Below, piece by piece: positions 363-41,427 of a DNA stretch of 56,039 bases; position 1 is the stretch's first letter; the number at the start of each line of letters is the position of its first letter. The notes beneath the pieces are model-generated. The model was not told the DNA's origin. It did not search any database and was given only the letters and a program-made list of their open reading frames with translations. The stretch is from Candidatus Levyibacteriota bacterium. GTDB taxonomy: Bacteria > Patescibacteriota > Microgenomatia > Levybacterales > UBA12049. The stretch spans positions 1 through 56,039 of the forward strand of contig PJMG01000003.1 of NCBI GenBank assembly GCA_003173895.1. The letters run 5' to 3'. A program made the position numbers and the translations under genes.

Positions 363-533
363 AAGCTCATTGAAAGTACTTTGTAAACAGACGTTCGGGG
401 AAGTTTGATTAAATAGAAAAATAATTATTCAAACCTCACTCGTGAAAGTTTGCTACCAAAGTTGAAAAGAATAATAAAGTAATAAAACAGCAAACTTTCA
501 ATGCTGTTTAAAAGTACTTTTCAATTCGCTTAA
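363..533 (+). repeat. family A nested-hairpin intergenic element (copy A1)
   Basis: Outer stem ttgaaagtactttgtaaacag / ctgtttaaaagtacttttcaa; inner stem tgaaagtttgct / agcaaactttca; cgttcg and ctcactcg boxes; fills the pyrF-pyrE spacer. Confidence 0.8.
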
Positions 534-543
534 TTTAATTAAT

Positions 544-1203
544 ATGAACTATTCTGAAAAAACTCTAAAAATTCTGGAGAAAACTGGAGCGATTATCGTT
601 AATAGTCATTTTGTTTATACCTCTGGTAAGCATGGCAGTGTTTATATCCGAAAAGATAAGCTTTATCCTTATACTTTACTCACTTCTAAAGTTTGTGAAT
701 TAATAGCTCGTCAGGTAAAAGATTGGAATATAGAAGTAGTGGTAGGGCCTTCTATTGGAGGAATTATTTTATCTCAATGGGTAGCTTACTACCTCTCTAA
801 ATTGACTAAAAAAGAAATACTTAGTGTTTTTACGGAAAAAAGTTATGATGATAAAGAAGTTTATGACAGGCCGCAAATGTTTAAGCGTGGATATGATCAA
901 CTAGTAAAAAATAAACGAGTTTTAGTGGTAGAAGATTTAACTACTACTGGAGCATCTGTTAAAAAAGTAGTTGATCAAGTTAAAGAGGCAAAAGGTAAAG
1001 TGGTTGGTGTATTTGTTTTATTAAATAGAAATCCTAAAGAGGTTAATAGTGAATTAATGGGAGTACCTTTTCATGCACTTTCTGTATTTAAAGCTGATGC
1101 TTACGAGCCTGAAGATTGTCCTTTATGTAAAGAAAATATTCGTATTAATACTGAAGTAGGACACGGCAAGGAGTATATGGAAAAAATAAAAGCTAAAAAT
1201 TAA
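544..1203 (+). CDS. pyrE: orotate phosphoribosyltransferase
   Basis: PRPP-binding motif VLVVEDLTTTGAS; size and neighbourhood with pyrF. Confidence 0.8.
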   Translation: MNYSEKTLKILEKTGAIIVNSHFVYTSGKHGSVYIRKDKLYPYTLLTSKVCELIARQVKDWNIEVVVGPSIGGIILSQWVAYYLSKLTKKEILSVFTEKSYDDKEVYDRPQMFKRGYDQLVKNKRVLVVEDLTTTGASVKKVVDQVKEAKGKVVGVFVLLNRNPKEVNSELMGVPFHALSVFKADAYEPEDCPLCKENIRINTEVGHGKEYMEKIKAKN

Positions 1204-1205
1204 AT

Positions 1206-1775
1206 CTATAGAGGAATGTTTACATTGAAGAGTTTTAGCCAAAATAATGTATAAGCAATAAGAAATATGGTTACTGCAATAACTATAATAACTGGACTAA
1301 TTTTTTGTCCACTCCTCTTAGCGACGAATCCATGAATTTCAGGGTTCTTTTTATCTTCTTTTAACTCAGCTGGTTTAGAATTAGTATTTGGAGCCTTAAC
1401 TTCTGGTTCAGAAATAGGAGTATTGGGTAAAGGTTGATTATTTGTTGGTAAGGTAAAAGAAACAGGATTTACAGAGTTAGTTAATGGATTGGTTGCTGGT
1501 GAAGTTAGATTAGGCGTAGATGGTGGTACTAGAGGATTAGTAGGTGGATTTAAAGGTTTATCTACACTAGCAATTTGATTAGTAGCAAAAGGGTTAGTTA
1601 GTGGAGTAGGTGTAACAGGCGGAGGAGTATTTAAGGTAGGTGTAGGCGTTGAAGTAACAGGATTAGTATTTAAATTTGTTCCTGTATCGCTTCCTACTCC
1701 CATTATTCTGTTGTACGCTTCACGCAGTTTAGGATCGAGTTGTTGACCATTGGGTTTAGCAGAATTTAGGTCCAT
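1206..1775 (-). CDS. hypothetical Pro/Thr/Asn-rich protein with C-terminal TM anchor
   Basis: 189-aa ORF, low-complexity PT-rich region, hydrophobic C-terminus VIIVIAVTIFLIAYTLFWL. Confidence 0.5.
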   Translation of the reverse strand: MDLNSAKPNGQQLDPKLREAYNRIMGVGSDTGTNLNTNPVTSTPTPTLNTPPPVTPTPLTNPFATNQIASVDKPLNPPTNPLVPPSTPNLTSPATNPLTNSVNPVSFTLPTNNQPLPNTPISEPEVKAPNTNSKPAELKEDKKNPEIHGFVAKRSGQKISPVIIVIAVTIFLIAYTLFWLKLFNVNIPL

Positions 1776-1846
1776 AAAATAATGGTAGAGTTATAAATTA
1801 TAAATGTCAAATGAAAATAAATTTTTAGCTAATATTTATTTCCATC

Positions 1847-1985
1847 GGGGTCCTGTCGCAGGTTTCCCTTCCAAAATGTTTGTCCTGTGATCAGGATCAA
1901 CGGACTGCACATTTTTGAACCTCTTCGAGTCTGAGCCAGAGGGTTCATCCCTCAGAGTCGAATGACTTTCCACCCGCACCACCCC
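1847..1985 (+). repeat. family B structured element (B1), candidate 5' leader RNA
   Basis: GGGGTCCTGTCGCAGG...CCCGCACCACCCC closing stem; internal hairpins; TAATAT box at 1830-1835, 11 nt upstream. Confidence 0.75.
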
Positions 1986-2033
1986 TCATGTTTACTTGAC
2001 TCCACATTCTTATTTTGATGTTATAATGGCTTT

Positions 2034-3065
2034 ATGCAAAAAATTATTGTTACACATAAAAATCCTGATTGGGATGCTATAACGAGTGTTTGGATTTTAA
2101 AAAAATTTTTACCAGGATGGGGAAATGCTAATGTGGAGTTTGTAAATGCGGGAGAAAGGTTGGAATTACAAATAGTAAGGGGTCCTGTCGCGACTTTCCC
2201 TCCCAAAAGTGCTCGCAATGGGTCTAATGCTGATGCATTAAATGCTGCGCGCTCTTGGAGCCCTTCCAGTCGCACCACCCCTGCTTCTGAAGAAAATACT
2301 ATTGAGATTGTTGAAAATAAAGAGATTATCCATGTTGATACAGGAATGGGACCATTAGATCATCATCAAACTTCAGATATGAACACTTGTGCTACTAGTC
2401 TCTGCTGGTTTTATGTTAAAGCTAAAAATCCAGAATTTAAAGATATGGATGCTGTAAAAATTGAATCAATTAACAAAATTGTTAAGTATGTAATTCTACT
2501 AGATCATTTTCAGGAAGTATATTTCCCAGACGCTGCATCAGATATATATGAATTTGCTCTTTATGGACTTATCGAAGGTTTTAAAATGGAATTCCCAAAT
2601 GACGATAATAAATGTTTAGAGTTTGGTTTTACATTATTAAATGCTGTATCTCATAGATTTGAGCAGAAAATATGGGCTGAAAATGAAATTAAAGAAAAAG
2701 GAATTGAGTTTGAAACTAGATTTGGAAAGGCGATGGGAATTGAGTCATTAAATGATGAAGTAGTAAAGTTAGGGCAAAAAATGGGATTTGTAATAGTGAT
2801 AAGAAAAGATCCTAGAAAAGGTTATGCACGAGTGAAGGCAATACCTGAAAAGAATTTAGAGTCTAGAGTTCAGAGTTCAGAATTGAAAAAAACTGGTATT
2901 GATTTGACTCCAGTTTATGAGAGATTAAAAGAAAAAGATCCAGCAGCTTCGTGGTTTTTACATGTTTCTAAAAAAATGCTCTTGAATGGTAGTGCTAAAA
3001 ATCCTAAAATGAAAGCAACAAAGTTAAATTTGAAAGAAATTATTGAAGTAGTAAAGGAGATTTAA
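2034..3065 (+). CDS. DHH-family phosphoesterase (NrnA-like) carrying two in-frame repeat insertions
   Basis: THKNPDWDAITS (DHH motif I/II-like) and DTGMGPLDHHQ (DHH motif); insertions at 2179-2281 and 2850-2887. Confidence 0.6.
   Translation: MQKIIVTHKNPDWDAITSVWILKKFLPGWGNANVEFVNAGERLELQIVRGPVATFPPKSARNGSNADALNAARSWSPSSRTTPASEENTIEIVENKEIIHVDTGMGPLDHHQTSDMNTCATSLCWFYVKAKNPEFKDMDAVKIESINKIVKYVILLDHFQEVYFPDAASDIYEFALYGLIEGFKMEFPNDDNKCLEFGFTLLNAVSHRFEQKIWAENEIKEKGIEFETRFGKAMGIESLNDEVVKLGQKMGFVIVIRKDPRKGYARVKAIPEKNLESRVQSSELKKTGIDLTPVYERLKEKDPAASWFLHVSKKMLLNGSAKNPKMKATKLNLKEIIEVVKEI
2179..2281 (+). repeat. family B element (B2) inserted in frame in the DHH gene
   Basis: GGGGTCCTGTCGCGACT...AGTCGCACCACCCC; core nearly identical to B4; translated as RGPVATFPPKSARNGSNADALNAARSWSPSSRTTP. 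Confidence 0.8.
2850..2887 (+). repeat. family E AT-rich repeat (E3) in frame in the DHH gene
   Basis: aagaatttagagtctagagttcagagttcagaattgaa matches E1/E2b (aatttagaatctagagttcagaatt). Confidence 0.7.
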
Positions 3066-4054: not shown

Positions 4055-4084
4055 ATTTATACTTCTAATTTCATTTGAAATTTG

Positions 4085-4102
4085 ATCCGCCAGCTGACGG
4101 AT
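4085..4102. repeat. family D GC palindrome (D1, one mismatch), in the rpsU leader
   Basis: atccgccagctgacggat. Confidence 0.8.
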
Positions 4103-4324: not shown

Positions 4325-4710
4325 ACAACAAAGTAAAAACTTTAATTTTTGTTGAAAGTAGGTATAAAATTAACAGAAAGCGAATTAAAGCAACTGTTGA
4401 GAGAGTTTTAAAAACTCAAAATTTAACAGGAAATGTAGAAGTTTCTATAGCTTTCGTAGGTGATCGTAAAATGCGAGAGCTATCTCGCAAATATAAGAAT
4501 GAAGATAAAACTCGTAATATTTTATCTTTTTCATTTGCTGAGGGAGAAATGACTGTCATGCCACCTGATATTTTAAGACTAGGGGATATAGTAATTTCTT
4601 ATCCCTATCTTATTAAAGAAGCTGTTGAATTTGAAGAATTAGTGGATGATAGAATTGATATGTTAGTCGAACATGGTTTAATGCACTTACTAGGACTTCA
4701 CCACGAGTAG
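4321..4710 (+). CDS. ybeY: rRNA maturation endoribonuclease YbeY
   Basis: HGLMHLLGLHHE zinc-binding motif at the C-terminus; ATGA overlap with rpsU. Confidence 0.85.
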   Translation: MNNKVKTLIFVESRYKINRKRIKATVERVLKTQNLTGNVEVSIAFVGDRKMRELSRKYKNEDKTRNILSFSFAEGEMTVMPPDILRLGDIVISYPYLIKEAVEFEELVDDRIDMLVEHGLMHLLGLHHE

Positions 4711-4770
4711 AATTTAGAATCTAGAGTTCAGAATTAAGAATTCTGAATTATGAATTTTGAATTCTAAATT
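4711..4770. repeat. family E AT-rich palindromic element (E1)
   Basis: aatttagaat...attctaaatt outer pairing; inner ttcagaatt-aag-aattctgaa; first 32 nt are the exact reverse complement of 6326-6357. Confidence 0.8.
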
Positions 4771-4776: not shown

Positions 4777-6258
4777 ATGGTTTTTTATAGAAAATATCGT
4801 CCACAAAAAATAGAAGATTTAGATAGTAAATCTCTTCAAGAAAGTTTATTTGCGATACTTTCTAAAAAAGAAATACCGCATGCTCTTTTATTCGCAGGAC
4901 CAAAAGGGCTTGGTAAGACTTCTACAGCTAGGATAGTAGCAAAGGTAGTTAATTGTACTAATCGCGGTAAAAATATAGAACCTTGTAATAAATGTGAACA
5001 GTGTATTTCTATCACTAATGGTTCTAATATAGATGTTTTGGAGATTGATGGAGCATCTAATCGGGGTATTGAAGAAATTCGTGATTTAAAAGAGAAAATT
5101 AGAGTTTTTCCGTCCTCTGCTTCTAAGAAAATTTATATTATCGATGAAGTGCACATGTTAACTACAGAAGCTTTTAACGCACTTTTAAAAATAGTAGAAG
5201 AACCACCTGAATATGTCATGTTTATTTTCGCGACTACAGAACTGGAAAAAGTTCCTGAAACGATTTTATCTCGCTGTTTTATAGTTAATTTTAAAAAAGC
5301 TACACAAAGTGAAGTAATACATTCACTTAAAAGAATTGTAGAAGGTGAAAAAATTAATATTACAGATGGAGCCCTAGAAGAAATTGCTAAATATTCAGAA
5401 GGTGGATTTAGAGATGGAGCTAAATATTTAGAAGAAGTTTCTACATTTGCTTCAGATAAAAAAATTGACATAGAGGATGTCAGAAAAATCTTAGGAACTA
5501 GTGGCATTGAACAAAGTTCTATAGAGTTTTTAGAAGCTCTAATAAAAAAAGATTTAAAAAAGAGTTTAGAAATTTTAAAAAATTTAGAAGAAAAAGGCAG
5601 CGATGCTAAATATTTCGCTTCAAATTTACTTCAGATTTTACAAGATTCTTTAATGGCTAAAAATGGTTTTGAGATGAAAAATAAAATTGATGAGAATTTA
5701 GAAGATATTTATTTAATGCTGGAAATATTTTCAGATGCTGCACTAAAAATTAAAAATGCTATTTATCCATTCTTACCAATTGAAATGGGAGCAGTTCATT
5801 ATTTTTTAATAAAAAATAATGATGAATTAGGAAGTAGGAATCAGGAAGTAGGAAACATAAAAAATAATAATAGTAATTCTAGAAAAACGATAGAAGATTT
5901 AGAGAAAATGGCGATGACTAAAAAGATTGTTGAATTCAGAATCCATCCGCCAGCTGGCGGATCAGAATTAAAGGATAAAAAAATTAATACTGAGGGAAAA
6001 ATCCAACAGGGTAATCTACATGATCAGAAAGATTTATTGGACAATTTAATTTATAAAGTAAAAGCTGATAATTTTTCTCTGGCTGGAGTTTTAAGAAGTT
6101 TTAAGAGTTATGAAATTCAAGCAGATCAAATAGTTTTAAAAACCAAGTATAAATTTCATAAACAAAAATTAGAAGAAGCCAAAAATTTAAGCGCTATTGC
6201 AAAAGCTTTAAAAGAAATAACTGGAAAAAATCTTAAAGTTCTGGTAAGCTTGGAATAA
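4777..6258 (+). CDS. dnaX: DNA polymerase III subunit gamma/tau
   Basis: Walker A GPKGLGKTS, zinc module CNKCEQC, DEVHML, SRC motif; contains D2 and a ggaagtaggaatcaggaagtagg repeat. Confidence 0.9.
   Translation: MVFYRKYRPQKIEDLDSKSLQESLFAILSKKEIPHALLFAGPKGLGKTSTARIVAKVVNCTNRGKNIEPCNKCEQCISITNGSNIDVLEIDGASNRGIEEIRDLKEKIRVFPSSASKKIYIIDEVHMLTTEAFNALLKIVEEPPEYVMFIFATTELEKVPETILSRCFIVNFKKATQSEVIHSLKRIVEGEKINITDGALEEIAKYSEGGFRDGAKYLEEVSTFASDKKIDIEDVRKILGTSGIEQSSIEFLEALIKKDLKKSLEILKNLEEKGSDAKYFASNLLQILQDSLMAKNGFEMKNKIDENLEDIYLMLEIFSDAALKIKNAIYPFLPIEMGAVHYFLIKNNDELGSRNQEVGNIKNNNSNSRKTIEDLEKMAMTKKIVEFRIHPPAGGSELKDKKINTEGKIQQGNLHDQKDLLDNLIYKVKADNFSLAGVLRSFKSYEIQADQIVLKTKYKFHKQKLEEAKNLSAIAKALKEITGKNLKVLVSLE
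5945..5962. repeat. family D GC palindrome (D2) in frame in dnaX
   Basis: atccgccagctggcggat, translated HPPAGGSE. Confidence 0.85.
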
Positions 6259-6259: not shown

Positions 6260-6293
6260 AAGAATTTAGAATTCTGAATTTATAATTCAGAAT
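6260..6293. repeat. family E hairpin (E2a)
   Basis: attctgaatt-tat-aattcagaat perfect 10-bp stem immediately after the dnaX stop. Confidence 0.7.
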
Positions 6294-6325
6294 GTAAATA
6301 GGAATATTTATTTATAAAGATCCAT

Positions 6326-6357
6326 AATTCTTAATTCTGAACTCTAGATTCTAAATT
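6326..6357. repeat. family E repeat (E2b), inverted copy of 4711-4742
   Basis: aattcttaattctgaactctagattctaaatt is the reverse complement of aatttagaatctagagttcagaattaagaatt. Confidence 0.85.
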
Positions 6358-6689: not shown

Positions 6690-6708
6690 TTATTATTAGC
6701 TCTTAAGA

Positions 6709-6871
6709 GCAGTATGCTTTCACAATTTTTGGTGTCGCTCAGGGAAGTGATTGAAATTTTAAGAAAGTATTCGGACTTCGCTAGTGGAATTTTCTCACCA
6801 ATAGTAATCTAACCTTTGAATGCCTCTTTAGAGAAAATTCCAATTCACCAAAAATTGAAAAGACAAACTGC
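6709..6871 (+). repeat. family A' nested-hairpin element (A'1)
   Basis: Outer stem gcagtatgctttcacaatttttggtg / caccaaaaattgaaaagacaaactgc; inner ggaattttctc / gagaaaattcc; tcgctcagg and ttcgctagtgg boxes. Confidence 0.8.
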
Positions 6872-6897
6872 ATTTTTAATAAGTGTCAATATAATAA

Positions 6898-8234: not shown

Positions 8235-8499
8235 CGTCTTTGCGAGCAAAGCACGGCAATCCGTGATATGTATAAAAAGCAAGGATATACTTATATTCTA
8301 ACTAACATAACAAATAAGGTTTTAGATACAGGTTCTACAGATAATCTAATAAAAAGGATTTATATGATGAGATTATAAAGTAATATTCTTTTCTTTTTAA
8401 GACTAAGATTGTTTATTTTTCAAATATAAAGTAGTATTTAACTATTATTTACCTAGATTGCTTCGTCCTGAATAAATCAGGACTCGCAACAACGACGAG
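8235..8499 (+). mobile_element. decayed GIY-YIG-bearing element bounded by family G inverted repeats
   Basis: Left end cgtctttgcgagc..gcaatccg; right end (reverse complement) cgtcgttgttgcgag..gaagcaatc; encloses a truncated GIY-YIG ORF. Confidence 0.55.
8268..8378 (+). pseudogene. truncated GIY-YIG nuclease-domain remnant (36 codons)
   Basis: MYKKQGYTYILTNITNKVLDTGSTDNLIKRIY resembles the Y.YIL.....LY.G.T.NL..R motif; the second Tyr is degenerate and the stop is premature. Confidence 0.45.
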
Positions 8500-8508
8500 A
8501 GTACTTTT

Positions 8509-9117
8509 ATGAAAACACCAAAAGCAATTGAAAATTTAATTAATTCTTTTGAAAAGCTTCCTGGTATGGGACATAAAAGTGCTCAAAGACTTACTTTTTA
8601 TCTCCTGCATGTCCCACAGACTCAGTTAGATAGTTTTGCAGAAAGTTTAAAAAACCTAAAGACTAAAACTCTCTTCTGTTCTAACTGCATGATGATTGAT
8701 GAAACAGATCCGTGCAGTATTTGTTCAGATTCTAGCAGGGATCAAAATATTATTTGTGTGGTAGAAGATCCTGTAGATGTTTTAGCACTGGAAAAAGGTG
8801 GAACATATAAAGGTCTTTACCACGTTCTTCACGGTAAAATAGATCCTCTAAATAATATTGGACCAGATGAAATATATTTGGAACAATTGTTCCAAAGGGT
8901 AAAGGGTGAAGGGGTAAGGGTAAAAGAAATAATTCTGGCGACAAATCCCACGATGGAAGGTGAGGCTACTGCTATGTATATAGCTAAACAGTTGAAAGCA
9001 ATAAATCCTGAGCTAAAAATTACGAGAATTGGACGCGGACTGCCAATTGGGGCTGATATAGAATATGCAGACGATATGACTCTTAAAAATGCAATGGAAG
9101 GAAGAAGTGAAATATGA
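8509..9117 (+). CDS. recR: recombination protein RecR
   Basis: LPGMGHKSAQRL HhH, C4 zinc motif CSNC..CSIC, Toprim region; F1 insertion. Confidence 0.9.
   Translation: MKTPKAIENLINSFEKLPGMGHKSAQRLTFYLLHVPQTQLDSFAESLKNLKTKTLFCSNCMMIDETDPCSICSDSSRDQNIICVVEDPVDVLALEKGGTYKGLYHVLHGKIDPLNNIGPDEIYLEQLFQRVKGEGVRVKEIILATNPTMEGEATAMYIAKQLKAINPELKITRIGRGLPIGADIEYADDMTLKNAMEGRSEI
8895..8914 (+). repeat. family F G-rich 20-mer (F1) in frame in recR
   Basis: aagggtaaagggtgaagggg; 19/20 identical to 14372-14391; translated RVKGEG. Confidence 0.7.
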
Positions 9118-15042: not shown

Positions 15043-15068
15043 AGAAAGTTTAATTCAATTATTTACCT

Positions 15069-15234
15069 AGAGTATACTTTTCGCAATTTTTCGACACGCT
15101 CGCGTACTTTGTTTGTGGAGATAGATAATATTCAAACTCGCTAATGGAATTTTCTCACCAAGGTTTGTTATAGATTTTATAATTTAATATTAAGAGAAAA
15201 TTTCAAATGTCTCAAAATTGAAAAAGCATACTCT
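15069..15234 (+). repeat. family A' nested-hairpin element (A'2)
   Basis: agagtatacttttcgcaatttttcgaca / tgtctcaaaattgaaaaagcatactct; inner ggaattttctc / gagaaaatttc; more than 90% identical to A'3 outside a variable spacer. Confidence 0.85.
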
Positions 15235-15300
15235 CCTTAAATATATAAAATAACTATATAAATATTGACAAACTTTTCTTTTTAGTGTCATGATAAATTT

Positions 15301-15795
15301 ATGTCAAAGAAAAAGGTAAAAAGCCAAAGACGAGATTCTTCGGCTTCGCTCAGAATGACAAGAGTACTTAAAAAGTTTTTTACTTCGGTAACTCCTTTTA
15401 CCCGCGCCTTAACTTTAATTTTACTCATTATTCTTCCAATTTTAGGTTTTAAATTAGGACAGCTTTATCAGAAAAATATTGATTTTAGAAATATCCCTGT
15501 AGAATTTTGCATGAGAGCTAGAAGTGCGAAAATTATAGACATCCGTTTAACTGATAGTGGGAAAACTTTTAACGCTAATGTAGGTGATAGTATAAAACTA
15601 AATTTACCAAGTAATTTTACCTGGAGTGTAGATACAGGTCCTGATGATATAGTGGATAAAATTTCAGATAACCAATATGTAGCTTTAAAACCAGGAACAG
15701 CAACTATTCAAGGTTATGGCAGACCAGCTTGTCAACCTGGGATGTTATGTTCACAGTTAGTAGTTAATTTTACTGCAACAGTAGAGATTAAATAA
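15301..15795 (+). CDS. hypothetical membrane-anchored protein (N-terminal TM, beta-rich C-domain)
   Basis: 164-aa ORF; the N-terminus contains a family C repeat. Confidence 0.5.
   Translation: MSKKKVKSQRRDSSASLRMTRVLKKFFTSVTPFTRALTLILLIILPILGFKLGQLYQKNIDFRNIPVEFCMRARSAKIIDIRLTDSGKTFNANVGDSIKLNLPSNFTWSVDTGPDDIVDKISDNQYVALKPGTATIQGYGRPACQPGMLCSQLVVNFTATVEIK
15329..15360 (-). repeat. family C repeat (reverse) in frame at the N-terminus of ORF 15301
   Basis: gacgagattcttcggcttcgctcagaatgaca translated RRDSSASLRMT. Confidence 0.7.
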
Positions 15796-31172: not shown

Positions 31173-31185
31173 GTTTTTACTTAAT

Positions 31186-31331
31186 CGCTCGCATATAAAT
31201 TTTTATCTTGGTTTCACGCTCGCTAATCTTAATTTATTCCAAGGCTTTGTCTGTCATCCTGAGCGAAGTCGAAGGATCTCGTCCTTTTACGCTGTTAGCT
31301 CGAATGAAACAGAAAAAATTTAAATGCTCGC
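31186..31331 (+). repeat. family A-type element (A4) with a family C unit nested at 31252-31284
   Basis: cgctcGCATATAAATTTTT / AAAAAATTTAAATGCtcgc outer stem; tcacgctcgctaatc box; tgtcatcctgagcgaagtcgaaggatctcgtcc inside. Confidence 0.65.
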
Positions 31332-31380
31332 TTTTTATTACCGCTTCATAATTAATCTCTAAAAAGCTACAATATAATCT

Positions 31381-32379
31381 ATGGATATTAAAGAAAATAT
31401 AATTTTAGCTCCATACACGACTTTTCATATTGGTGGTCCTGCGGATTATTTTTTAATAGCTAAAAATACGCAGGAATTAATGGATGGAATTAAATGGGCG
31501 GAAGAAAAGAATATTTTATTTTTTATTTTAGGAAGCGGGGCAAATATTTTAGTGGGGGATAAAGGATTTAGAGGATTGGTGATCAAAAATGAGAGTTCAC
31601 AGGTCACAGTTAAAAGTTCACAGGAAGTGTCATTACTTACTGCGGATTCGGGAATTACTATTGCTGAGTTAATTACAATAACCACAGAAAAAGGACTTTC
31701 AGGTTTGGAGCATTTTGCTGGAATTCCATCTACTTTAGGTGGAGCAATTTGGCAGAATTTACACTTTTTATCCGCTGATCGATCGGAAACTGTTTTTATC
31801 GGAGATATTTTAGAAACAGCTATCATAATTCCAAATGTTACGTCTTTGCGAGGAACAGAAAGTGACGAAGCAATCTCAAAAGGATTGCCACTCGAACAAA
31901 GTTCGCTCGCAATGACGAGGACGGTAAATAAAGATTATTTTAAATTTGCTTATGATTACAGTATTTTACACGACACTCATGATATCGTTTTATCTGCTAC
32001 TTTAAAATTAAAACCAGAATCTCGTGAAGTTATTAAATCTACTATTAATGCTAATTTAAAATGGAGAGCTGAAAAACATCCAGAAAATGCCGTGAATTGT
32101 TCAGCGGGATCAATCTTTAAGAAAATTCCTGCCCGCCTCGCAAGCGAGAGCGTTGCGGGCAGGGAAGGCGGCGCTGGACGTTTTATTCAACAAGTCGGAT
32201 TAAAAGGACATAAAATAGGTGGTGCTCAAATATCAGAAAAACATGCTAATTTTATTATTAACGCAGGAAATGCGAAGGCTTCTGAAGTTTTATCTTTAAT
32301 AAATTTAGTTAAGGAAAAAGTTAAAAAGGAGCTTGGATTAGATATGGAAACTGAAATAAGTTTGGTTGGAGAGTTCTAG
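31381..32379 (+). CDS. murB: UDP-N-acetylenolpyruvoylglucosamine reductase
   Basis: FHIGGPADYF, GSGANIL, AGSIFKK...GLKG..IGGAQISEKHANFIIN; two in-frame repeat insertions. Confidence 0.9.
   Translation: MDIKENIILAPYTTFHIGGPADYFLIAKNTQELMDGIKWAEEKNILFFILGSGANILVGDKGFRGLVIKNESSQVTVKSSQEVSLLTADSGITIAELITITTEKGLSGLEHFAGIPSTLGGAIWQNLHFLSADRSETVFIGDILETAIIIPNVTSLRGTESDEAISKGLPLEQSSLAMTRTVNKDYFKFAYDYSILHDTHDIVLSATLKLKPESREVIKSTINANLKWRAEKHPENAVNCSAGSIFKKIPARLASESVAGREGGAGRFIQQVGLKGHKIGGAQISEKHANFIINAGNAKASEVLSLINLVKEKVKKELGLDMETEISLVGEF
31841..31919. repeat. family G palindromic MITE (both GIY-YIG-element ends, no cargo) in frame in murB
   Basis: cgtctttgcgagg..gaagcaatc-tcaaaag-gattgcc..ctcgcaatgacg; translated TSLRGTESDEAISKGLPLEQSSLAMTR. 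Confidence 0.75.
32128..32163. repeat. family H GC-rich hairpin (H3) in frame in murB
   Basis: cctgcccgc-ctcgcaagcgag-agcgtt-gcgggcagg; translated PARLASESVAGR. Confidence 0.75.
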
Positions 32380-32380
32380 A

Positions 32381-33394
32381 ATGAAAAATAGATTTACAGA
32401 AATTGATGATCTTCGTGGTTTAGCTATTTTCTTCATGATTTTGGTTCATACTTCAGTTTATTTTCTGACTGATTCGTTTATGAAATTTTTATGGAATTTC
32501 TCTGAATGGTCAGTAGCAGGATTTATCTTTTGCTCGAGTTTTGTCTACTTTATAAATAGTAAAAATAATTTTTGGAATGAGAAAAAAATTGATTTTAAAC
32601 TATATTGGCAGTATTTATTAAAACGCTTAAAACGTTTAATTATTCCGTATTATATTTTTCTGTTAGTTTTTATATCATTACTTTTATTAACTCACAATAA
32701 ACTGCTTAACACAAAATACATAATTTTTTCTACATTTTTAGTGGGTGGGGTAGATATAAGTTGGTTAGTTTTACTTTTTCTTATTTTTGCTCTTATGTTT
32801 CCTCTTATAAAATATCTCTTTGAAAATTATAAAAAAATATTTTATTTAGGATTTTTTCTTTCGTTTCTTTCTCTTATTTATTTCTTATTTATTCATAATT
32901 TAAATTTTAATTATCGTTTTATTTTTTGGTTACCATGGAGTTTTATAGTTTTTTATACGGTTTTATTTACTGATTACTCTTTGAGAGAAAAAAGTAAATT
33001 GAGTAATAAGTATTTTTATCTTTTTTCAATATTATTTTTTGTCTTTTCATTTTTATTTTCATTTATTTATCTTCAGCAAAATTATTTAAATTTAGATCAA
33101 ATTAGTAATAAATATCCACCTAATCTTTATCATATTTCATTTGGACTATTAGGAGTTTTAGGGTTTTATTTATTATCTAAAATTGGAATATTTAATCCGC
33201 CAGCTGGCGGACTTAGAAAGTTTTTAAATTTTTTAAGTTTGAATTCTTATTCAATTTATTTTATTCACTATACGATTTTATATTTTACAGCCAGTTGGTT
33301 TGTAAAGAATAGTAATTGGTTTTTATTTACGATTTTTGTTTTTATAACTAGTTTAATTTCGCAAAAAACTTTTAATTTGATTTTAAAAAAATAA
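32381..33394 (+). CDS. acyltransferase family 3 membrane protein
   Basis: MKNRFTEIDDLRGLAIFFMILVH start typical of acyltransferase_3; multi-TM. Confidence 0.7.
   Translation: MKNRFTEIDDLRGLAIFFMILVHTSVYFLTDSFMKFLWNFSEWSVAGFIFCSSFVYFINSKNNFWNEKKIDFKLYWQYLLKRLKRLIIPYYIFLLVFISLLLLTHNKLLNTKYIIFSTFLVGGVDISWLVLLFLIFALMFPLIKYLFENYKKIFYLGFFLSFLSLIYFLFIHNLNFNYRFIFWLPWSFIVFYTVLFTDYSLREKSKLSNKYFYLFSILFFVFSFLFSFIYLQQNYLNLDQISNKYPPNLYHISFGLLGVLGFYLLSKIGIFNPPAGGLRKFLNFLSLNSYSIYFIHYTILYFTASWFVKNSNWFLFTIFVFITSLISQKTFNLILKK
33196..33211. repeat. family D GC palindrome (D5) in frame
   Basis: tccgccagctggcgga translated NPPAGGL. Confidence 0.85.
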
Positions 33395-35545: not shown

Positions 35546-36556
35546 ATGAAAAATAGCTCATACACCATCATTTTATTTTATAAATATACAGATATTGAAG
35601 ATCCTGAAAGATTTGCTCAAGAGCAAAGAATTATAGCTACTAAACTTGGTCTTAAAGGTCGATCTATAGTGGCTAAAGAGGGCTATAATGCTACATTTGA
35701 AGGTAAGAATGGAAATATTGAAAAATATATAGAAGAACTCTTAAAAGATCCTCGTTTTAAAGATACCCATTTTAAAAAAAGTGAAGGAACTGGCAGCGCT
35801 TTTCCAAAGCTTTCTATAAAAGTAAGGGAGGAAATTGTTTCTGCGGACTTAGGTAAGAGTGATATAAATCCTAGTAAAATGACTGGTAAATATATTACTG
35901 CAGAGCAGTTACATGACTTGATCCATTCAAATAAGGAATTTTATATAGTAGATATGCGAAATGATTATGAACAAAACGTAGGATTTTTTAAAAATTCTAT
36001 TCTTTCCGGGATGAAAAGCTTTCGGGATTTACCTAAAACTTTAGAAAAATTAAAAGATCTAAAAAATAAAACCATAGTGACTGTTTGTACTGGAGGGGTG
36101 AGATGTGAAAAAGCCTCTGGATTTTTAGTGGCAAATAATTTTAAAGATGTGTACCAACTTTACGGTGGAATAGTAACTTATATGGAAAAATATCCTAATG
36201 AAGATTTTCTAGGTTCTTTATATGTTTTTGATAATAGATTAGTGATGGGATTTAATATGGATGATCCAAAACGTGAAATTGTAGGTAAATGTTTTAAATG
36301 TGGTGCGCCTTCTGAAAATTTTATAAATTGTAAAGATGGTTATTGTCACAGACACTTTATAGCTTGTATTAAATGTCTAAAAGGTGAGGAGTCTATGTAC
36401 TGTCCTGTAAAGTGCAGAAATTATAAAAAAGAGCATAAAATTCCATTAAAAACTAAAATGGTTTTAGGAATGGATAAGTTTAGAACTAGGATATTTAATA
36501 CAAATCCTTTAAAGTTAGCTTTTCGTAATTTTTATACTTCTCTTATTTATTCTTAA
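35546..36556 (+). CDS. trhO: rhodanese-domain tRNA U34 hydroxylase TrhO (UPF0176/YceA)
   Basis: ILFYKY start, CTGGVRCEKAS rhodanese active-site loop, Cys-rich C-terminus. Confidence 0.8.
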   Translation: MKNSSYTIILFYKYTDIEDPERFAQEQRIIATKLGLKGRSIVAKEGYNATFEGKNGNIEKYIEELLKDPRFKDTHFKKSEGTGSAFPKLSIKVREEIVSADLGKSDINPSKMTGKYITAEQLHDLIHSNKEFYIVDMRNDYEQNVGFFKNSILSGMKSFRDLPKTLEKLKDLKNKTIVTVCTGGVRCEKASGFLVANNFKDVYQLYGGIVTYMEKYPNEDFLGSLYVFDNRLVMGFNMDDPKREIVGKCFKCGAPSENFINCKDGYCHRHFIACIKCLKGEESMYCPVKCRNYKKEHKIPLKTKMVLGMDKFRTRIFNTNPLKLAFRNFYTSLIYS

Positions 36557-36558
36557 TA

Positions 36559-36725
36559 AAGCTCATTGAAAGTACTTTTTAAACAGGCGTTCGCTAACTT
36601 TGTTTATAATTAAAATTATATTTCATCTCTCACTCGTGAAAGTTTGCTATTAGTTTAACATTGAAACATAAAATATTAAACAGCAAACTTCCAATGCTCT
36701 TTAAAGAGTACTATTCAATTCACTT
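36559..36725 (+). repeat. family A nested-hairpin element (A2)
   Basis: aagctcattgaaagtacttttt...ctcactcgtgaaagtttgct...agcaaacttcc aatgctc...; starts 2 nt after the trhO stop. Confidence 0.8.
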
Positions 36726-36776
36726 TCACTAAAGTTAAAAAACTACTCAATAAATTATTTTTATGATTCATTCTTA

Positions 36777-36812
36777 TTTATACTCCATACAAAATGCTGT
36801 ATACTAAATATG
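36777..36812 (+). promoter_or_regulatory. conserved ~32-nt promoter/operator-like motif (copy 2)
   Basis: tttatactccatacaaaatgctgtatactaa; TATACT lies 9 nt before the msrB ATG at 36815. Confidence 0.45.
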
Positions 36813-36814
36813 TT

Positions 36815-37210
36815 ATGGCAGATGATTTGAAGAATAAAACAGATAATTATTGGAAGGAAAAATTAACTCCTGAACAGTATTATACTCTTCGGGAAGAAGG
36901 GACAGAGTATCCATTCACAGGAAAATTTTATAATAATTTTGAAGATGGTATGTATCACTGCGCTGCTTGTAATGCAGCACTTTTTTCTTCAGATACTAAA
37001 TATGATAGTGGGTGTGGGTGGCCAGCTTTTAATGCTTCTTTAAAAGGCGCAGTAACATTTAAAGATGATTATCGTTTTGGAATGCATAGAATTGAAGTAA
37101 GATGCGCTAATTGTGATTCACATTTAGGACATGTATTTGATGATAGTTCTACTAAAACTGGGAAATGGTTTTGTATTAATTCTTCCTCATTAAATTTTGA
37201 CAAAAAATAG
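36815..37210 (+). CDS. msrB: peptide-methionine (R)-S-oxide reductase
   Basis: CAAC...GCGWPAF...RIEVRCANCDSHLGHVF; the upstream ATG at 36794 lies inside the conserved motif. Confidence 0.9.
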   Translation: MADDLKNKTDNYWKEKLTPEQYYTLREEGTEYPFTGKFYNNFEDGMYHCAACNAALFSSDTKYDSGCGWPAFNASLKGAVTFKDDYRFGMHRIEVRCANCDSHLGHVFDDSSTKTGKWFCINSSSLNFDKK

Positions 37211-37230
37211 ACATCTGTTAAAATGGTTGG

Positions 37231-38016
37231 ATGGTAAGAGAATTATTTAGAGCAGTAACCTCAAATTTTCTGCATGAAAATATTGGTAATTTAGATGAGA
37301 GTAATAATTTGCCAGAGTTATTTTCTAAACTTACTGAAGCATTAGGAGGACAAGTTAGAACTATTGTGGATCCTGAAACAGAAAAATTAATGTTTTCAGG
37401 CCCCACTATTATAGTAGCCAATCATGCTAGTTTTCCTCCTGTAATATTTAATTTTCTAAAAAAAACCACACAACGTGTTGGCCTTTTTATTAACGAATCT
37501 TTTAAAACTATATTAAATCTTAAATCAGAAACCCTAAGAAAAAATTTACTTTCTATTAGTTTAAAAAATCATAATTATATTTCTCCAGGTGGAATAGCAG
37601 AAATAGTTTTTCCAAGTAATATAAAAGATAGTAATAGAGAATTAGAAAATGGTAAATCTGCTGTAGAAGGTGTTAAAATTTTAGAAGAAGGCGGAATAGT
37701 AGTTATATTTCCTACAGGAGGAATAGGAAAAGATTGGTTTTCTGGTGTAGGTACCTTGATTAAATCCGTGAATAGAAAAGGTAAAAACGTTAATATAATT
37801 TTTGCTCATATAGATGGTACTAGTACTTTTGATACATTAAGGATTGGAATCCCTTCCAGACTTAGGAGAAGATTACCATCTTTTAAAGCTACAGTTTATT
37901 ATAAATATTTTTCTAACGGAAATAATTATAGATATGAAAGTAAAGAAGAAATAACAGCAGTTTTACATAAAGAATATGATGAATGGGCTAAAAATATTAA
38001 ATATGAAAAAGTTTAA
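37231..38016 (+). CDS. hypothetical protein, possible PlsC-like acyltransferase
   Basis: IVANHASFPP (NHxxxxD-like) and IFPTGGIG (FPEG-like) motifs; weak. Confidence 0.4.
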   Translation: MVRELFRAVTSNFLHENIGNLDESNNLPELFSKLTEALGGQVRTIVDPETEKLMFSGPTIIVANHASFPPVIFNFLKKTTQRVGLFINESFKTILNLKSETLRKNLLSISLKNHNYISPGGIAEIVFPSNIKDSNRELENGKSAVEGVKILEEGGIVVIFPTGGIGKDWFSGVGTLIKSVNRKGKNVNIIFAHIDGTSTFDTLRIGIPSRLRRRLPSFKATVYYKYFSNGNNYRYESKEEITAVLHKEYDEWAKNIKYEKV

Positions 38017-38797
38017 ACTAAATGTTTCTATTACTGATTTTGCTCCATTATTTGGGAATTTAGAATATTTATTTAAGGGGTTAAAAGAAACTGGAGTAGA
38101 TGGATTAGAAATTGTTTTAGGAATAAAATCTCGTTGGAGTGAAAATTATTTATTGAATCTTTCTAAAAAATATAATTTAGAAATTAATACATTTCATCAA
38201 TCAATGTGGTCTGGTGGAGGATTGTATTTAGATGAAGGGATGTTCCGCTTAGCTAAAAAAATAAATGTAAAGGGAATTACTATTCATCCATTAGTTTTTA
38301 GAAGTTTAAATTCTAATGCTACGGAAAAATATTTTAAGAAATTATCACTCTGGCAAAAAAAATATGGTATTAAACTTTTTTTAGAAAATATGCCTTCACG
38401 TTTTGGTGGCGCATTTGAATTTTTAAATAATTTTTATACTTTTACGAAAGATGTAGGTGATTTAGGTGAAATTTATAAAAAGGCCCAAGAATATGGATTT
38501 TTAATTACTTTTGACAGCACTCATTTTGATAATTATAAACCTCATGAGAATAAGGAATTTAAAGAAATATTTTCTAAAATAGGTAATATTCATTTAAGTA
38601 GTTTTGAGGGTAAAATAGAGCATTTACCCCTTAATAAAGGAAAATTTGATTCTAAAGGTTTTTTTAATTATTTAGATAAAAATAATTATAAAGGAATAAT
38701 TACTTTTGAAATTTATTATCCTAGTGTTATTAGTTTAGGTTATGATTTTAAGCCAATTAAAGAGTCAGTGGAAGTAGTTAGAAAGTTGGGATATTAG
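38003..38797 (+). CDS. sugar phosphate isomerase/epimerase (xylose isomerase-like TIM barrel)
   Basis: GVDGLEI, ITIHP, LFLENM, HLSSF pattern; start chosen at MKKFKL. Confidence 0.5.
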   Translation: MKKFKLNVSITDFAPLFGNLEYLFKGLKETGVDGLEIVLGIKSRWSENYLLNLSKKYNLEINTFHQSMWSGGGLYLDEGMFRLAKKINVKGITIHPLVFRSLNSNATEKYFKKLSLWQKKYGIKLFLENMPSRFGGAFEFLNNFYTFTKDVGDLGEIYKKAQEYGFLITFDSTHFDNYKPHENKEFKEIFSKIGNIHLSSFEGKIEHLPLNKGKFDSKGFFNYLDKNNYKGIITFEIYYPSVISLGYDFKPIKESVEVVRKLGY

Positions 38798-38817
38798 AGC
38801 TTGGTTTTAATATGCAT

Positions 38818-38981
38818 AAGCTCGCAGAATGTATTTTAAAAGCCGCTCGGAAACATGAATCTTAAATTAATATTAAATTGTCATTCTCGCTCGTGAAAGT
38901 TTACTACCAAAGTCAAAAAGAAATTTAAGAATATTAAACAGTAAACTTTCAATGCTGTTTAAAATACATATCTGCTCGCTC
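38818..38981 (+). repeat. family A nested-hairpin element (A3)
   Basis: Outer gcagaatgtattttaaaagc / gctgtttaaaatacatatctgc; inner tgaaagtttact / agtaaactttca; compensatory versus A1. Confidence 0.8.
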
Positions 38982-39040
38982 CTGTTTTTTTAAAAAATTG
39001 TAATTTAAAAATTGAAAATTTTTCTGTTATACTATTTCTG

Positions 39041-40306
39041 ATGTTAATTAAAAATTACTCCTCACTTAATACATCCCCTCAAAGAAAATTGGCTTTAGAT
39101 TTGATTGAAACTGCACTGGAATCAATTCAACCACGGAAAGTTTTAAAAAATAAAATAAAATTAGAAAATAATACTATAGAAATTGATAATAAAAAATATA
39201 ATTTATCTGATTTTGAACATATTTACATCGTGGGTTTTGGAAAGGGATCGTCAGGCGTTTGTAAATATTTAGAAAACTTGCTTGGTAATAAATTAACCAA
39301 AGGTTGGGATATAGATTTAGTTGATGAAAAATTTGAGAGTATTGAATATATTAAGGGAACACATCCATTACCTTCGCAAACTAATATCGATTATACGAAA
39401 AATGTAATTAAGAGTTTATCAGAATTGGGGGAAAATGATTTGGTTTTAGTAGTGATTTGTGGAGGAGGATCGGCGATGTTTGAAAGTCCTGTTTTACCTC
39501 TGGAAAAACTCGATGAATTGGGTCGAGAAATGTTACGCTCAGGTGCTGATATTAAGGAATTAAATATAGTTCGTAAACATTTATCATTAGTTAAAGGTGG
39601 AGGATTAGCTAAACTTTTAGATCCAGCCAAAATTGTTTCACTTATATTTTCAGATGTGCCTGGAAATGATTTCTCTACTATTGCTTCCGGCCCGACTACT
39701 ATTGATCCATATAATAAAAATGACGCCATTGAAATTCTTAAAAAATATAATATTACTTTAATAAATGAAGAGGATTTAATTGATTTACCAAAAGCTAAGG
39801 AATATTTTGAAAGAGTTGATAATATTTTAATTGTCAGCAATCTTACAGCTTTAAATGCAATGATGGAAAAGATTAAGAGTGAAAGATTAAGAGCTAAAAT
39901 TTTAAGTTATAAATTTACAGGAGATGCGAAAGTTGTTGGTAAAAAATTAATTGAAGAATGTAAAGATAATGAAATTCTACTCGCGGCAGGAGAAACTACA
40001 GTGGATGTAAAAGGAAAAGGAACTGGTGGAAGAAATCAAACTTTAGTTTTAGCTAGTTTTCCATTTCTGGATTCTAAAACTTTAATTTGTTCTTTTGGAA
40101 CTGATGGATGGGATTTTTATGGATATGCGGGAGCTATAGGTGATGAAGAAACGATGGAAAAAGCTAAAAAAGCTTCGCTTGATTTTCAAAAATATTTAGA
40201 CGATGATAATAGTTATGAGTTTTTTAAACTCATAGGGGATGGAATTGATACAGGGAAATTAGAATCAAATGTGTCGGACATAATGATGGTAATAAAAGGT
40301 AACTAA
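39041..40306 (+). CDS. glycerate 2-kinase (DUF4147/MOFRL family)
   Basis: GFGKGS, CGGGSAMFE, LSLVKGGGLA, GTDGWD motifs. Confidence 0.8.
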   Translation: MLIKNYSSLNTSPQRKLALDLIETALESIQPRKVLKNKIKLENNTIEIDNKKYNLSDFEHIYIVGFGKGSSGVCKYLENLLGNKLTKGWDIDLVDEKFESIEYIKGTHPLPSQTNIDYTKNVIKSLSELGENDLVLVVICGGGSAMFESPVLPLEKLDELGREMLRSGADIKELNIVRKHLSLVKGGGLAKLLDPAKIVSLIFSDVPGNDFSTIASGPTTIDPYNKNDAIEILKKYNITLINEEDLIDLPKAKEYFERVDNILIVSNLTALNAMMEKIKSERLRAKILSYKFTGDAKVVGKKLIEECKDNEILLAAGETTVDVKGKGTGGRNQTLVLASFPFLDSKTLICSFGTDGWDFYGYAGAIGDEETMEKAKKASLDFQKYLDDDNSYEFFKLIGDGIDTGKLESNVSDIMMVIKGN

Positions 40307-40337
40307 GCTCATTGAAAGTACTTTTCAACTCGCTTAA
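40305..40337 (+). repeat. collapsed (solo) family A element
   Basis: aagctcattgaaagtacttttcaactcgcttaa equals the A1 5' end fused to the A1 3' end across aagtactt. Confidence 0.7.
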
Positions 40338-40375
40338 TTTATCTAAAAATTTAAAATTTGTTATTTAAAATTATT

Positions 40376-41275
40376 ATGGATACTTTAACACCGGAAAAAG
40401 TTTTAGACTTAAAATTAAAAGCTAATAGAATTAGAGAGTTAATTATAAATATGTTAGTTAAAGCAGGTAGTGGTCACAGTGGGGGGCCGCTCGGAATGAC
40501 TGATATTTTTACTGCGATGTATTTTCATATTTTGAATCATGATCCTAAAAATCCACTTATGCCGGATCGTGATCGACTAGTTTTATCCAATGGACATATT
40601 TGTCCAGTCCAATATGCGACATTGGCGCTTGCTGGATATTTCCCGTTAGAAGAATTAGATACTCTGCGAAAAATTAATTCTAGACTTCAGGGTCATCCTC
40701 ATCGAGGAACGCTCCCAGGATTAGAAACTACTTCTGGACCCCTAGGTGAAGGATTATCTCAAGGGATTGGTATGGCCTTAGCTGGAAAAATGGATAAGAA
40801 AGATTATCATGTTTATGTTTTAACTTCAGATGGTGAACATCAGGAAGGAAATACTTGGGAAGCGATGATGATGGCAGCGAAATATAAATTAGATAATTTA
40901 ACTGTAGTAATAGATCGAAATAGAATTCAAATAGATGGTGATACAGAAAAAGTTATGCCATTAGATCCATTTAGCGATAAATATAAAGCATTTAATTTCG
41001 AGGTTTTTGAAATTCCAGGCAATGACATTCAACTTTTTATAGAAACAGTAGAAAATGCTAAACAGGTTAAAAATAGTCCTACTGTTATTATTGCTGATAC
41101 TATTCCTGGTAAAGGTGTAAGTTATATGGAAAATAATTATATTTGGCACGGAATTCCACCTGATTTGCAGGATGTACCAGGTGCACCTAAAAAAGGTGAA
41201 CAAGCTAAGGTAGCGTTAGAAGAATTAGGAAAAATTGAAGAAAGTTTAAAAAGGGAAGGAGGCATATCTAATTAA
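40376..41275 (+). CDS. transketolase, N-terminal subunit
   Basis: GHSGGPLGMTDI, SNGH, GPLGEG, LTSDGE ThDP-binding motifs. Confidence 0.9.
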   Translation: MDTLTPEKVLDLKLKANRIRELIINMLVKAGSGHSGGPLGMTDIFTAMYFHILNHDPKNPLMPDRDRLVLSNGHICPVQYATLALAGYFPLEELDTLRKINSRLQGHPHRGTLPGLETTSGPLGEGLSQGIGMALAGKMDKKDYHVYVLTSDGEHQEGNTWEAMMMAAKYKLDNLTVVIDRNRIQIDGDTEKVMPLDPFSDKYKAFNFEVFEIPGNDIQLFIETVENAKQVKNSPTVIIADTIPGKGVSYMENNYIWHGIPPDLQDVPGAPKKGEQAKVALEELGKIEESLKREGGISN

Positions 41276-41288
41276 TGAGTAATGCTTG

Positions 41289-41427
41289 AGAGTTAGCTTT
41301 TCACAATTTTTCGACACGCTCGCTCCAAGATCGCTAATGGAATTTTCTCACCAAAGTTTGTTACTGATTTTATAACTTAATATTAAGAGAAAATTTCAAA
41401 TGTCTTAAAATTGAAAAAACTAACTCT
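41289..41427 (+). repeat. family A' nested-hairpin element (A'3) between the tkt halves
   Basis: agagttagcttttcacaatttttcgaca / tgtcttaaaattgaaaaaactaactct; inner ggaattttctc / gagaaaatttc. Confidence 0.85.

Follow-up and report, generated by a model that had tools for sequence, protein, structure and literature searches.

How do structured repeats come to stand between genes that overlap or almost abut in related genomes? The question is raised by contig PJMG01000003.1, a stretch of 56,039 nt that was analysed over its whole length (hereafter the window), and by the A/A' elements, nested hairpins that lie in its intergenic spacers. The prevailing view of Patescibacteria (candidate phyla radiation, CPR) genomes is that they are small and dense and contain little mobile DNA. 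We find that the A/A' family of nested structured repeats is real and well defined, and that it had not been recorded before. We lean, with modest confidence, towards the view that it is a lineage-specific, non-coding and non-autonomous mobile repeat in a compact Levybacteria-like Patescibacteria genome, similar to repetitive extragenic palindromes (REPs), REP doublets forming hairpins (REPINs) and miniature inverted-repeat transposable elements (MITEs).

Six full copies share a Y-shaped fold

A sequence-only reading had listed seven copies of one nested hairpin element, four of A type and three of A' type, and all seven stretches are present in the window. Six of them (A1-A3 and A'1-A'3, length class 140-170 nt) have a common Y-shaped fold, in which an outer stem P1 of 20-25 bp with fixed bulges closes a junction with two further hairpins, P2, which is small and variable, and the inner P3, which has 12 bp and a loop of 34-39 nt. 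The parts follow one another as P1, CGYTCG box, P2, CTCRCT box, P3 and AAT(G) joint. The architecture with boxes that had been described holds for these six copies, except that A'3 has no P2, which is therefore dispensable. The seventh stretch, A4, had been counted as an A-type copy, but it lacks the 12-bp inner hairpin, and what it has in common with the others is limited to the long outer stem and the GCTCGC boxes. A4 is a different boxed hairpin and not a true A-type copy.

A covariance model trained on A1-A3 only, and run over the window with filters off, provides the bit scores and E-values of Table 1. It recovers all three A' copies (E 7e-11 to 1.6e-4), so A and A' form one family. The earlier list was incomplete, as it missed the solo unit, fragment X and the A'-type arm remnants beside A2; it also placed the 5' boundary of A'3 at 41289 instead of ~41281. 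RNA minimum free energies over the seven stretches, A4 included, range from -31 to -49 kcal/mol, and z-scores against dinucleotide shuffles are -6.0 for A1 and -2.8 for A'2 with DNA parameters and -3.8 for A3 with RNA parameters. The - strand folds equally well or better in 5 of the 7 copies.

The conserved unpaired features of the elements are confined to one strand, which suggests strand-specific recognition. They comprise a TC/TC internal loop within AAGC...GCTT at the base of A-type P1, the CGYTCG that follows the 5' arm of P1, CTCRCT(NN) ahead of P3, ACCAA opening the P3 loop in 5 of 6 copies, and AAT(G) after P3. In A3, (A/C)GCTCG stands immediately 5' of each of the three hairpins, with TCGCT after P1 and P2 and ATGCT after P3. 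From this box pattern the element can be read as three co-oriented box-plus-hairpin units, two of them within the loop of the third. GCTCGC is strongly enriched in spacers, with 8 of its 12 occurrences in the non-coding 12.7% of the contig.

Comparison of A1 with A2 gives an identity of 93% in stems and 92% in boxes vs 54% in loops (Fisher p 2e-9), and sequence constraint acts on stems and boxes only. Since a loop identity of 54% is close to saturation at the base composition of the window, the copies, or their source lineages, are old. Asymmetries between the arms are conserved as well, namely the TC/TC internal loop of the A type, and an extra C plus an R/T mismatch and a 2x2 loop in A'2 and A'3.

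Copies start 0-26 nt past stop codons, or 49 nt in the case of A'1. They had been described as occupying whole spacers and ending a few nucleotides before the next start; however, the spacers are not filled entirely, and so short a gap is found at A1 only (10 nt), the distance to the next + strand gene being 34-68 nt for A2, A3, A4, A'2 and A'3. The gene next to A'1 is convergent on the - strand, with its stop 26 nt off. All nine copies and fragments lie on the + strand, and each is downstream of, and co-directional with, a + strand gene.

Table 1. Copies and fragments of the A/A' family, and the related hairpin A4, with window positions and covariance model scores.
Feature	Position	Strand	Description	Bits	E-value
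A1	361..533	+	full copy between pyrF (OMP decarboxylase) and pyrE (orotate phosphoribosyltransferase)	182	3.7e-46
A1, AAGC-TC flank	363-368	+			
A1, outer 5' arm	369-390	+			
A1, CGTTCG box	392-397	+			
A1, variable middle hairpin	398-434	+			
A1, CTCACTCG box	435-442	+			
A1, inner hairpin arms	443-454 and 489-500	+	loop 34 nt		
A1, ATG joint	501-503	+			
A1, outer 3' arm	504-524	+			
A1, TTCGCTT	525-531	+			
A'-type 5' arm remnant	36503..36533	+	shortly upstream of A2; forms the last codons of open reading frame (ORF) 35546-36556		
A2	36557..36727	+	full copy, 2 nt past the stop of a rhodanese-domain gene	170.5	4.6e-43
Possible A'-type 3' arm remnant	36730..36755	+	downstream of A2; marginal		
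A3	38816..38983	+	full copy upstream of the glycerate kinase gene	176	1.3e-44
Solo unit CTAAGCTCATTGAAAGTACTTTTCAACTCGCTTAA	40303..40337	+	35 nt; 137 inner model positions skipped	24.5	2.9e-4
A'1	6708..6872	+	full copy between convergent ybaB-like and purS-like genes; fold -49 kcal/mol	42	5e-9
A'2	15068..15235	+	full copy; z -2.8	49	7e-11
A'3	41281..41428	+	no middle hairpin; between the two transketolase half-genes	25	1.6e-4
Fragment X	50767..50824	+	A3-type 3' arm (GCTGTTTAAAATACACATCCGCGCGCT), then a piece of A'-type 3' arm (AAAAATTGAAAAGATAAA)		
A4	31183..31335	+	GCTCGC boxes flanking a long outer stem; related boxed hairpin	14.8	0.1

Arms change in sequence and stay complementary

The arms were said to differ between copies while remaining complementary, and the alignment bears this out. 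In the model alignment of the six copies, which form two clades and were fitted to the structure model, 95.4% of pair cells are standard, vs 75.9 +/- 2.1% when partners are shuffled (a level of 95.4% is reached in 0 of 500 shuffles). As a control, sliding the partner by 1-3 columns gives a pairing of 35-53%. Changes on both sides are found in 23 of the 38 pairs.

P3 differs between A and A' in 5 of its 12 pairs, all of them compensated (TGAAAGTTTGCT/AGCAAACTTTCA vs TGGAATTTTCTC/GAGAAAATTCCA), and its pairing is imperfect only at an A.C in A2 and a G.T in A'2 and A'3. Point compensations include an A:T in place of G:C in the A3 inner stem and a change of A:T to T:A between A'2 and A'3. All three examples of compensation that had been quoted are correct, with a change of interpretation for A1 and A3 that is given below. 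Read by eye, the stems of the + strand contain about three G.T pairs and two A.C mismatches, so wobble counts show no strand preference.

Elements are nested and exchange modules

The solo unit (CTAAGCTCATTGAAAGT|ACTTTTCAACTCGCTTAA), whose first bases overlap the stop codon of the glycerate kinase gene, is the exact distal outer hairpin of A1 and A2 with an empty interior. Within the window, the 17-mer AAGCTCATTGAAAGTAC is restricted to A1, A2 and the solo unit, and is exact in all three. A single GTAC stands at the apex of the solo unit; in A1 and A2, GTAC...GTAC bounds an interior of ~134 nt.

A2 lies in turn between A'-type arms. A 31-nt stretch upstream of it matches the A' left end and 5' arm, with 26 of 31 positions identical to the left end of A'3 (local score 42 vs a shuffled maximum of 26; repeat family D10), and the match to the A' 3' arm downstream is marginal, scoring 30 vs a shuffled 95th percentile of 25 and a shuffled maximum of 35. 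Fragment X (repeat family D14; score 32 vs a shuffled maximum of 28) has no matching 5' half. In A4, a TGTCATCCTGAGCGAAGTCGAAGGATC unit at 31252-31278 takes the place where the 12-bp inner hairpin would be. Together the solo unit, A2 within A' arms, fragment X and A4 with its foreign repeat indicate that insertion of hairpin into hairpin is a general process here, as had been suggested from the likeness of inner and outer hairpins. That likeness itself is partial: the base of A-type P3 (CTCG-TGAAAGT...ACTTTCAA-TGCT) resembles the solo unit, but that of A' P3 does not, and as a sign of origin by insertion it is suggestive only.

The same four cases show that elements were built by nesting and that part of the compensation is module swapping. 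A3 has the core and proximal stem of A1 and A2 (TTTTAAAAGC...GCTGTTTAAAA), and inside the same flanks its distal outer hairpin differs (AAGCTC-GCAGAATGTA...TACATATCTGC-TCGCTC). The arms of A1 and A3 do keep their complementarity; however, their 'compensation' did not come about point by point and is largely a module swap, since the distal hairpin was exchanged around a common proximal stem and core. At least three outer-arm types (A1/A2, A3 and A') are unrelated to one another. The AATGCTT upstream of A'3 was considered as a relic of the ancestral start of the transketolase-C gene and rejected: AATGCTT also stands before the A' arm at 36503 and is thus part of the element.

Elements are insertions relative to related genomes

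Occupancy of orthologous spacers could be compared at four junctions with relatives of 63-82% protein identity. At 4 of 4 sites the spacers of the relatives are short, from an 8-nt overlap up to 62 nt, with 7 of 9 comparisons at 7 nt or less. Between pyrF and pyrE (A1) the window has 200 nt, and three relatives with 79-82% identity have 3 nt, an ATGA overlap and an ATGA overlap. Upstream of the glycerate kinase gene (A3) the window has 243 nt vs 5 nt in relative L083 (76% identity), in which the upstream gene may differ. From glycerate kinase to transketolase-N (solo unit) the spacer is 51 nt vs 3, 4 and 1 nt. From transketolase N to C (A'3) it is 186 nt vs an 8-nt overlap in L081, 7 nt in L091 and 62 nt in L090 (78% identity), and both transketolase halves in the window are full length and intact. 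A/A' elements are insertions at every comparable site.

A1 and the solo unit are flanked by TTAAGC...GCTTAA, and the nesting point by GTAC...GTAC; the flanks of A' show no duplication. Near A3, an extended -10-like motif (TGTTATACT at 39024-39040 of the window, TGTTATATT at 68-84 of L083) stands equally close before the glycerate kinase start in both genomes, a hint that a promoter with a very short leader is conserved here, downstream of A3.

Searches for further copies and for a mobilising enzyme

The inner-hairpin core CTCRCTCGTGAAAGTTTRCTA had 0 matches in GTDB species genomes, and the solo-unit pattern 0 in GTDB genomes. A merged A/A' pattern gave 4 matches in GTDB genomes, in unrelated taxa and none scored by the covariance model, 2 matches in JGI metagenomes that have no complementary arm and equal chance, and 0 in viral contigs. 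The covariance model found nothing below E 0.3 in 1.34 Mb of related loci plus, with filters off, 95 kb of the closest relatives; this ~1.4 Mb consists of Patescibacteria and other related loci and includes 43 kb from organisms of ~80% identity.

Rfam contains no family matching at the gathering threshold, nor one for the elements at E up to 5, three-way-junction ribozymes included; the sole match touching an element at that limit, SNORD102 (493-564, - strand, E 1.7), is due to chance. A promoter and terminator scan yielded no consistent site, and its counts were not above those of shuffles. Among the ~65 ORFs of the window there is no REP-associated tyrosine transposase (RAYT; Y1 HUH, PF01797) flanked by repeats. 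Nothing relevant on REP-like repeats or MITEs of Patescibacteria came up in a literature search.

How the family may have spread

We propose that the family spread into very short intergenic spacers. Its building block would be a conserved GCTCG-type box followed by a hairpin, and a full element would consist of three co-oriented units, the loop of the outer hairpin bearing two of them and thus giving a three-way junction. Elements may have landed in the loops of earlier elements, producing Russian-doll composites; such loops would be among the few harmless places for insertion, as the other spacers are only a few bases long. The mobilising enzyme would recognise a folded single strand, and the one-strand boxes and fixed bulges point to this type of recognition rather than to that of symmetric double-stranded ends. 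Stems, bulges and boxes are likely conserved or covarying because only lineages whose hairpins and boxes are intact go on multiplying.

By analogy with TnpA-REP and its REPs, we infer that the enzyme is most likely a transposase of HUH/Y1 type that is strand-specific and has its gene in another part of the genome. To our knowledge, no enzyme that moves such repeats is known in the Patescibacteria phylum. The GC skew of the + strand is positive in 26 of 28 2-kb windows, and the elements share the orientation of this G-rich strand, presumably the lagging-strand template. The REP on which TnpA-REP acts must be single-stranded and carry both its conserved bulge and its conserved tetranucleotide on the 5' side, and the cut falls at a CT dinucleotide; more generally, what TnpA-REP and IS200/IS605 transposases read in a substrate is a hairpin with a conserved bulge and a 5' motif resembling a guide, and they cleave at a dinucleotide close by (PMC8266576). 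In REPINs, too, the two sides of the hairpin commonly change in a compensatory manner (PMC3116915).

Several points weigh against mobility. The covariation represents few independent events, since there are only six full copies in two clades and their alignment was structure-fitted. The copies are old, with loops near saturation, and recent activity is not implied. No target-site duplication can be read; GTAC at the nesting point and TTAA at the ends of A1 and of the solo unit are themselves palindromic and so ambiguous. The family occurs in no second genome of those searched, and no gain or loss between close strains was seen. Genes for a transposase, RAYT, integrase or intact nuclease are absent from the 56-kb window. 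Finally, a role at the RNA level explains the orientation equally well, as all copies are co-oriented with the upstream gene.

Such a role is the main rival, and we regard it as a tentative possibility. A/A' would then be a domesticated or primarily functional RNA structure, transcribed within operons and kept by selection in place, either as 3' stabilisers or processing sites that punctuate polycistronic messenger RNAs, or as a closing stem that folds the 140-170-nt insert away so that translational coupling survives. Position fits well, as every copy lies closely behind a co-directional + strand gene (0-26 nt past the stop, 49 nt for A'1), and the genes that are separated overlap (ATGA) or almost abut in relatives and thus were probably coupled. 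Conserved stems and boxes next to loops near saturation agree with it too, and unpaired conserved motifs on a covarying scaffold are typical of functional RNAs. However, the wobble pairs show no strand preference, and in 5 of 7 copies the - strand has a fold at least as good as that of the + strand. Rfam offers no matching family even when E is allowed to rise to 5, and the downstream genes are unrelated in function. The contrast between stems and loops does not decide between an RNA role and mobility: selection on element lineages for mobility can also yield it, given that the divergence between copies includes that of mobility-selected master lineages.

A combination of both ideas strikes us as rather doubtful. 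The elements would be mobile DNA that seeks hairpin loops and nests in itself, inserting into the apex of earlier copies, and the host would now depend on their fold. The closing stem would be selected in place, folding the insert away between genes that were once coupled and keeping stop and start close, for example at pyrF/pyrE and at the transketolase halves, two pairs that overlap in relatives. Sites of processing or of protein binding could be marked by the conserved GCUCG boxes. If true, an extremely compact genome would have found a new means of first tolerating mobile DNA and then making use of it.

It is improbable that complementarity was kept by mutation alone, through template switching in quasi-palindromes at replication or through gene conversion between arms. 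Templated correction is known to act on long AT-rich palindromes, and both strands of the elements fold about equally well, as such a process would have it. Yet copying from arm to arm would erase the conserved asymmetries, which persist across copies; the boxes are on one strand only, and the spread of the family would be left unexplained.

That the elements are ordinary intrinsic terminators or integron attC recombination sites is very improbable: they do lie just past stop codons, T-runs follow A3 (T7), A4 (T5) and A'1 (T5), and attC sites conserve structure over sequence and can be branched, but the scan finds no terminator in any element (the one terminator-like site in 36000-42000 is outside all of them), the stems are AT-rich and of 20+ bp with 100-nt 'loops' and in most copies no U-tract, two copies sit where termination would harm (between the transketolase halves and between pyrF and pyrE), the ends have no RYYYAAC/GTTRRRY core sites, the window has no integrase, and the flanking genes are housekeeping genes in the order found in relatives.

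Taken as a mobile repeat, A/A' shows that miniature structured repeats can invade a dense genome, even between overlapping genes, and pile up in nested form. At the density seen in the window, a genome of about 1 Mb would hold 100 or more copies. More of this genome would allow the family to be used as a test of selection for mobility vs RNA function in place, and the same data could point to the mobilising enzyme.

The host contig and its other repeats

The window is the entire contig (~31% G+C). It has 65 ORFs kept, 54 of them on the + strand, and a coding density of 87%. Its gene content is housekeeping: dnaX, cysS, recR, pyrF/pyrE, murB, ssb and the genes of ribosomal proteins S6/S18/S21, along with a split transketolase, def/fmt and histidine kinases. 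The closest proteins (identity 61-82%) are those of Patescibacteria, mainly of Levybacteria-type metagenome-assembled genomes, and the collections searched hold no genome closer than these. An exact match to the glycerate kinase protein of the window is not on record. The contig has no tRNA called by ARAGORN and no Rfam match at the gathering threshold. Spacers are inflated relative to syntenic stretches of relatives, with 26 of 64 exceeding 100 nt in the window vs 1 of 19 in L081 and 2 of 25 in L091, and several unrelated hairpin repeat families sit in the long ones.

The repeat found in A4 is present at other sites of the window too. TGTCATCCTGAGCGAAGTCGAAGGATC units lie at 31252-31278 (+) inside A4 and at 15334-15360 (-), there are seven partial copies in the window, and its 11-mer occurs at 6665, 14679, 15350, 25187, 28628, 28686 and 31252. 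A 27-nt pattern of it, TGTCATYCTGAGCGAAGYCGAAGRATC, has at least 120 exact matches in species genomes (loci L093-L212), with Bacteroidota, Chloroflexota, Acidobacteriota, Verrucomicrobiota, Firmicutes and Proteobacteria among the matches listed, often as inverted pairs 60-90 nt apart that form palindromes of ~95 nt. The TGTCATCCTGAGCGAAGTCGAAGGATC repeat is pan-bacterial, not lineage-specific, and unrelated to A/A'; a literature search found no paper quoting its sequence. A truncated GIY-YIG nuclease gene (ORF 8268-8378, 36 codons; PF01541, E 4e-4, N-terminal 28 residues only) sits in a 274-nt spacer (8235-8508) closed by a long-range stem containing GCGAGC/CTCGCAA. A GIY-YIG enzyme as the mobilising nuclease of the TGTCATCCTGA repeats was rejected, as such a gene is near the repeat in only 1 of 80 loci.

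A G+C-rich family of ~105-170 nt, which starts with CGGGGTCCTG and ends with CACCACCCC(T), has copies at 1846-1995, 2178-2282, 42481-42590 and 47837-48010 and no Rfam match. Its copy at 2178-2282 is within a DHH-family ORF (2034-3065), and one copy fills the spacer between transketolase-C and an FAD oxidase gene. The G+C-rich perfect palindrome ATCCGCCAGCTGGCGGAT (family D12) occurs three times, first at two gene ends (4070-4102 and 5930-5962) and then within ORF 32366-33394 (33180-33212). Short AT-rich repeats AGAATTTAGAGTCTAGAGTTCAGAGTTCAGAATT (families D4 and D15) are found at 2851-2884, 4709-4756, 6261-6353 and 47107-47135, and form inverted pairs in several spacers. The G-run repeat AATTGTT..AAGGGTAAAGGGTGAAGGGG (family D17) lies inside two unrelated coding regions, recR and cysS (8885-8933 and 14362-14410).

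A tRNA-like sequence (24337-24452, 24390-24540) has a 7-bp acceptor stem, a type-II-like D region, the anticodon loop CTCCAAA, a T-arm GCAGGTTCGAATCCTGC and ~43 nt in place of the variable arm; it was missed by ARAGORN at default settings and has no Rfam tRNA match. A long inverted repeat (GTAGTACATTTTGAA...) spans it and matches the A/A' model weakly on the - strand (18.6 bits). Finally, a long hairpin element with an internal branch (TTTGGTATATACTCC-TTC-GCAATCAAA ... TTTGATTGC-TAC-GGAAGTATATGCCAAA) occupies 16450-16575 within a 243-nt spacer (16383-16625) and does not match the A/A' model.

Comparison with known systems

A/A' has the general properties of the REP/MITE class. It is multi-copy, dispersed and non-coding within the range of 30-500 nt (six full copies, a solo unit and fragments in 56 kb), and its hairpin potential is beyond chance (z -2.8 to -6.0; 95% vs 76% paired).

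Like REP/REPIN sequences with their RAYT (TnpA-REP), A/A' elements are extragenic, multi-copy and non-coding, carry a short conserved motif before the hairpin and conserved bulges, and occur as solo units beside larger composites. They share compensatory changes across the hairpin (PMC3116915) and strand-specific features of the type recognised on single-stranded DNA (PMC8266576). In contrast to REPINs, their motif is (A/C)GCTCG or CGYTCG and not GTAG, to which it is analogous in position only, and their units are co-oriented and nested around a three-way junction instead of forming two inverted REPs. A full element is 140-170 nt long, the host is Patescibacteria-like, and the 56 kb contain no RAYT. 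The formal definition of a REPIN does not apply, since the units are not inverted doublets and have no GTAG.

MITEs of DDE type (Correia/NEMIS, RUP and others) resemble A/A' in size class, long complementary ends, lack of coding capacity, insertion between genes and inside operons, and possibly in the TA/TTAA that ends A1 and the solo unit. However, a MITE family has one common terminal inverted repeat and A/A' at least three outer-arm types; a target duplication is not clearly seen, the window contains no parent insertion sequence, and the asymmetry of the arms is conserved. With several arm types and no readable target duplication, A/A' also falls outside the classical definition of a MITE.

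The modular or nested repeats of enterobacteria and pneumococci (BIME, ERIC/IRU and BOX elements) have stable predicted folds and lie within transcription units. A/A' is like them in its mosaic, modular build and in size variants that arise by internal insertions or deletions at fixed points, but it has no sequence similarity to them, follows a logic of nested box plus hairpin, and belongs to another phylum. Integron attC sites share with A/A' a structure conserved above sequence, unpaired conserved bases, a place directly after ORFs and a single orientation; they differ in having R'/R'' core sites and an integrase, both absent from A/A', whose neighbours are syntenic housekeeping genes and not cassettes. 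We take A/A' to work like REPIN and MITE families and file it in neither.

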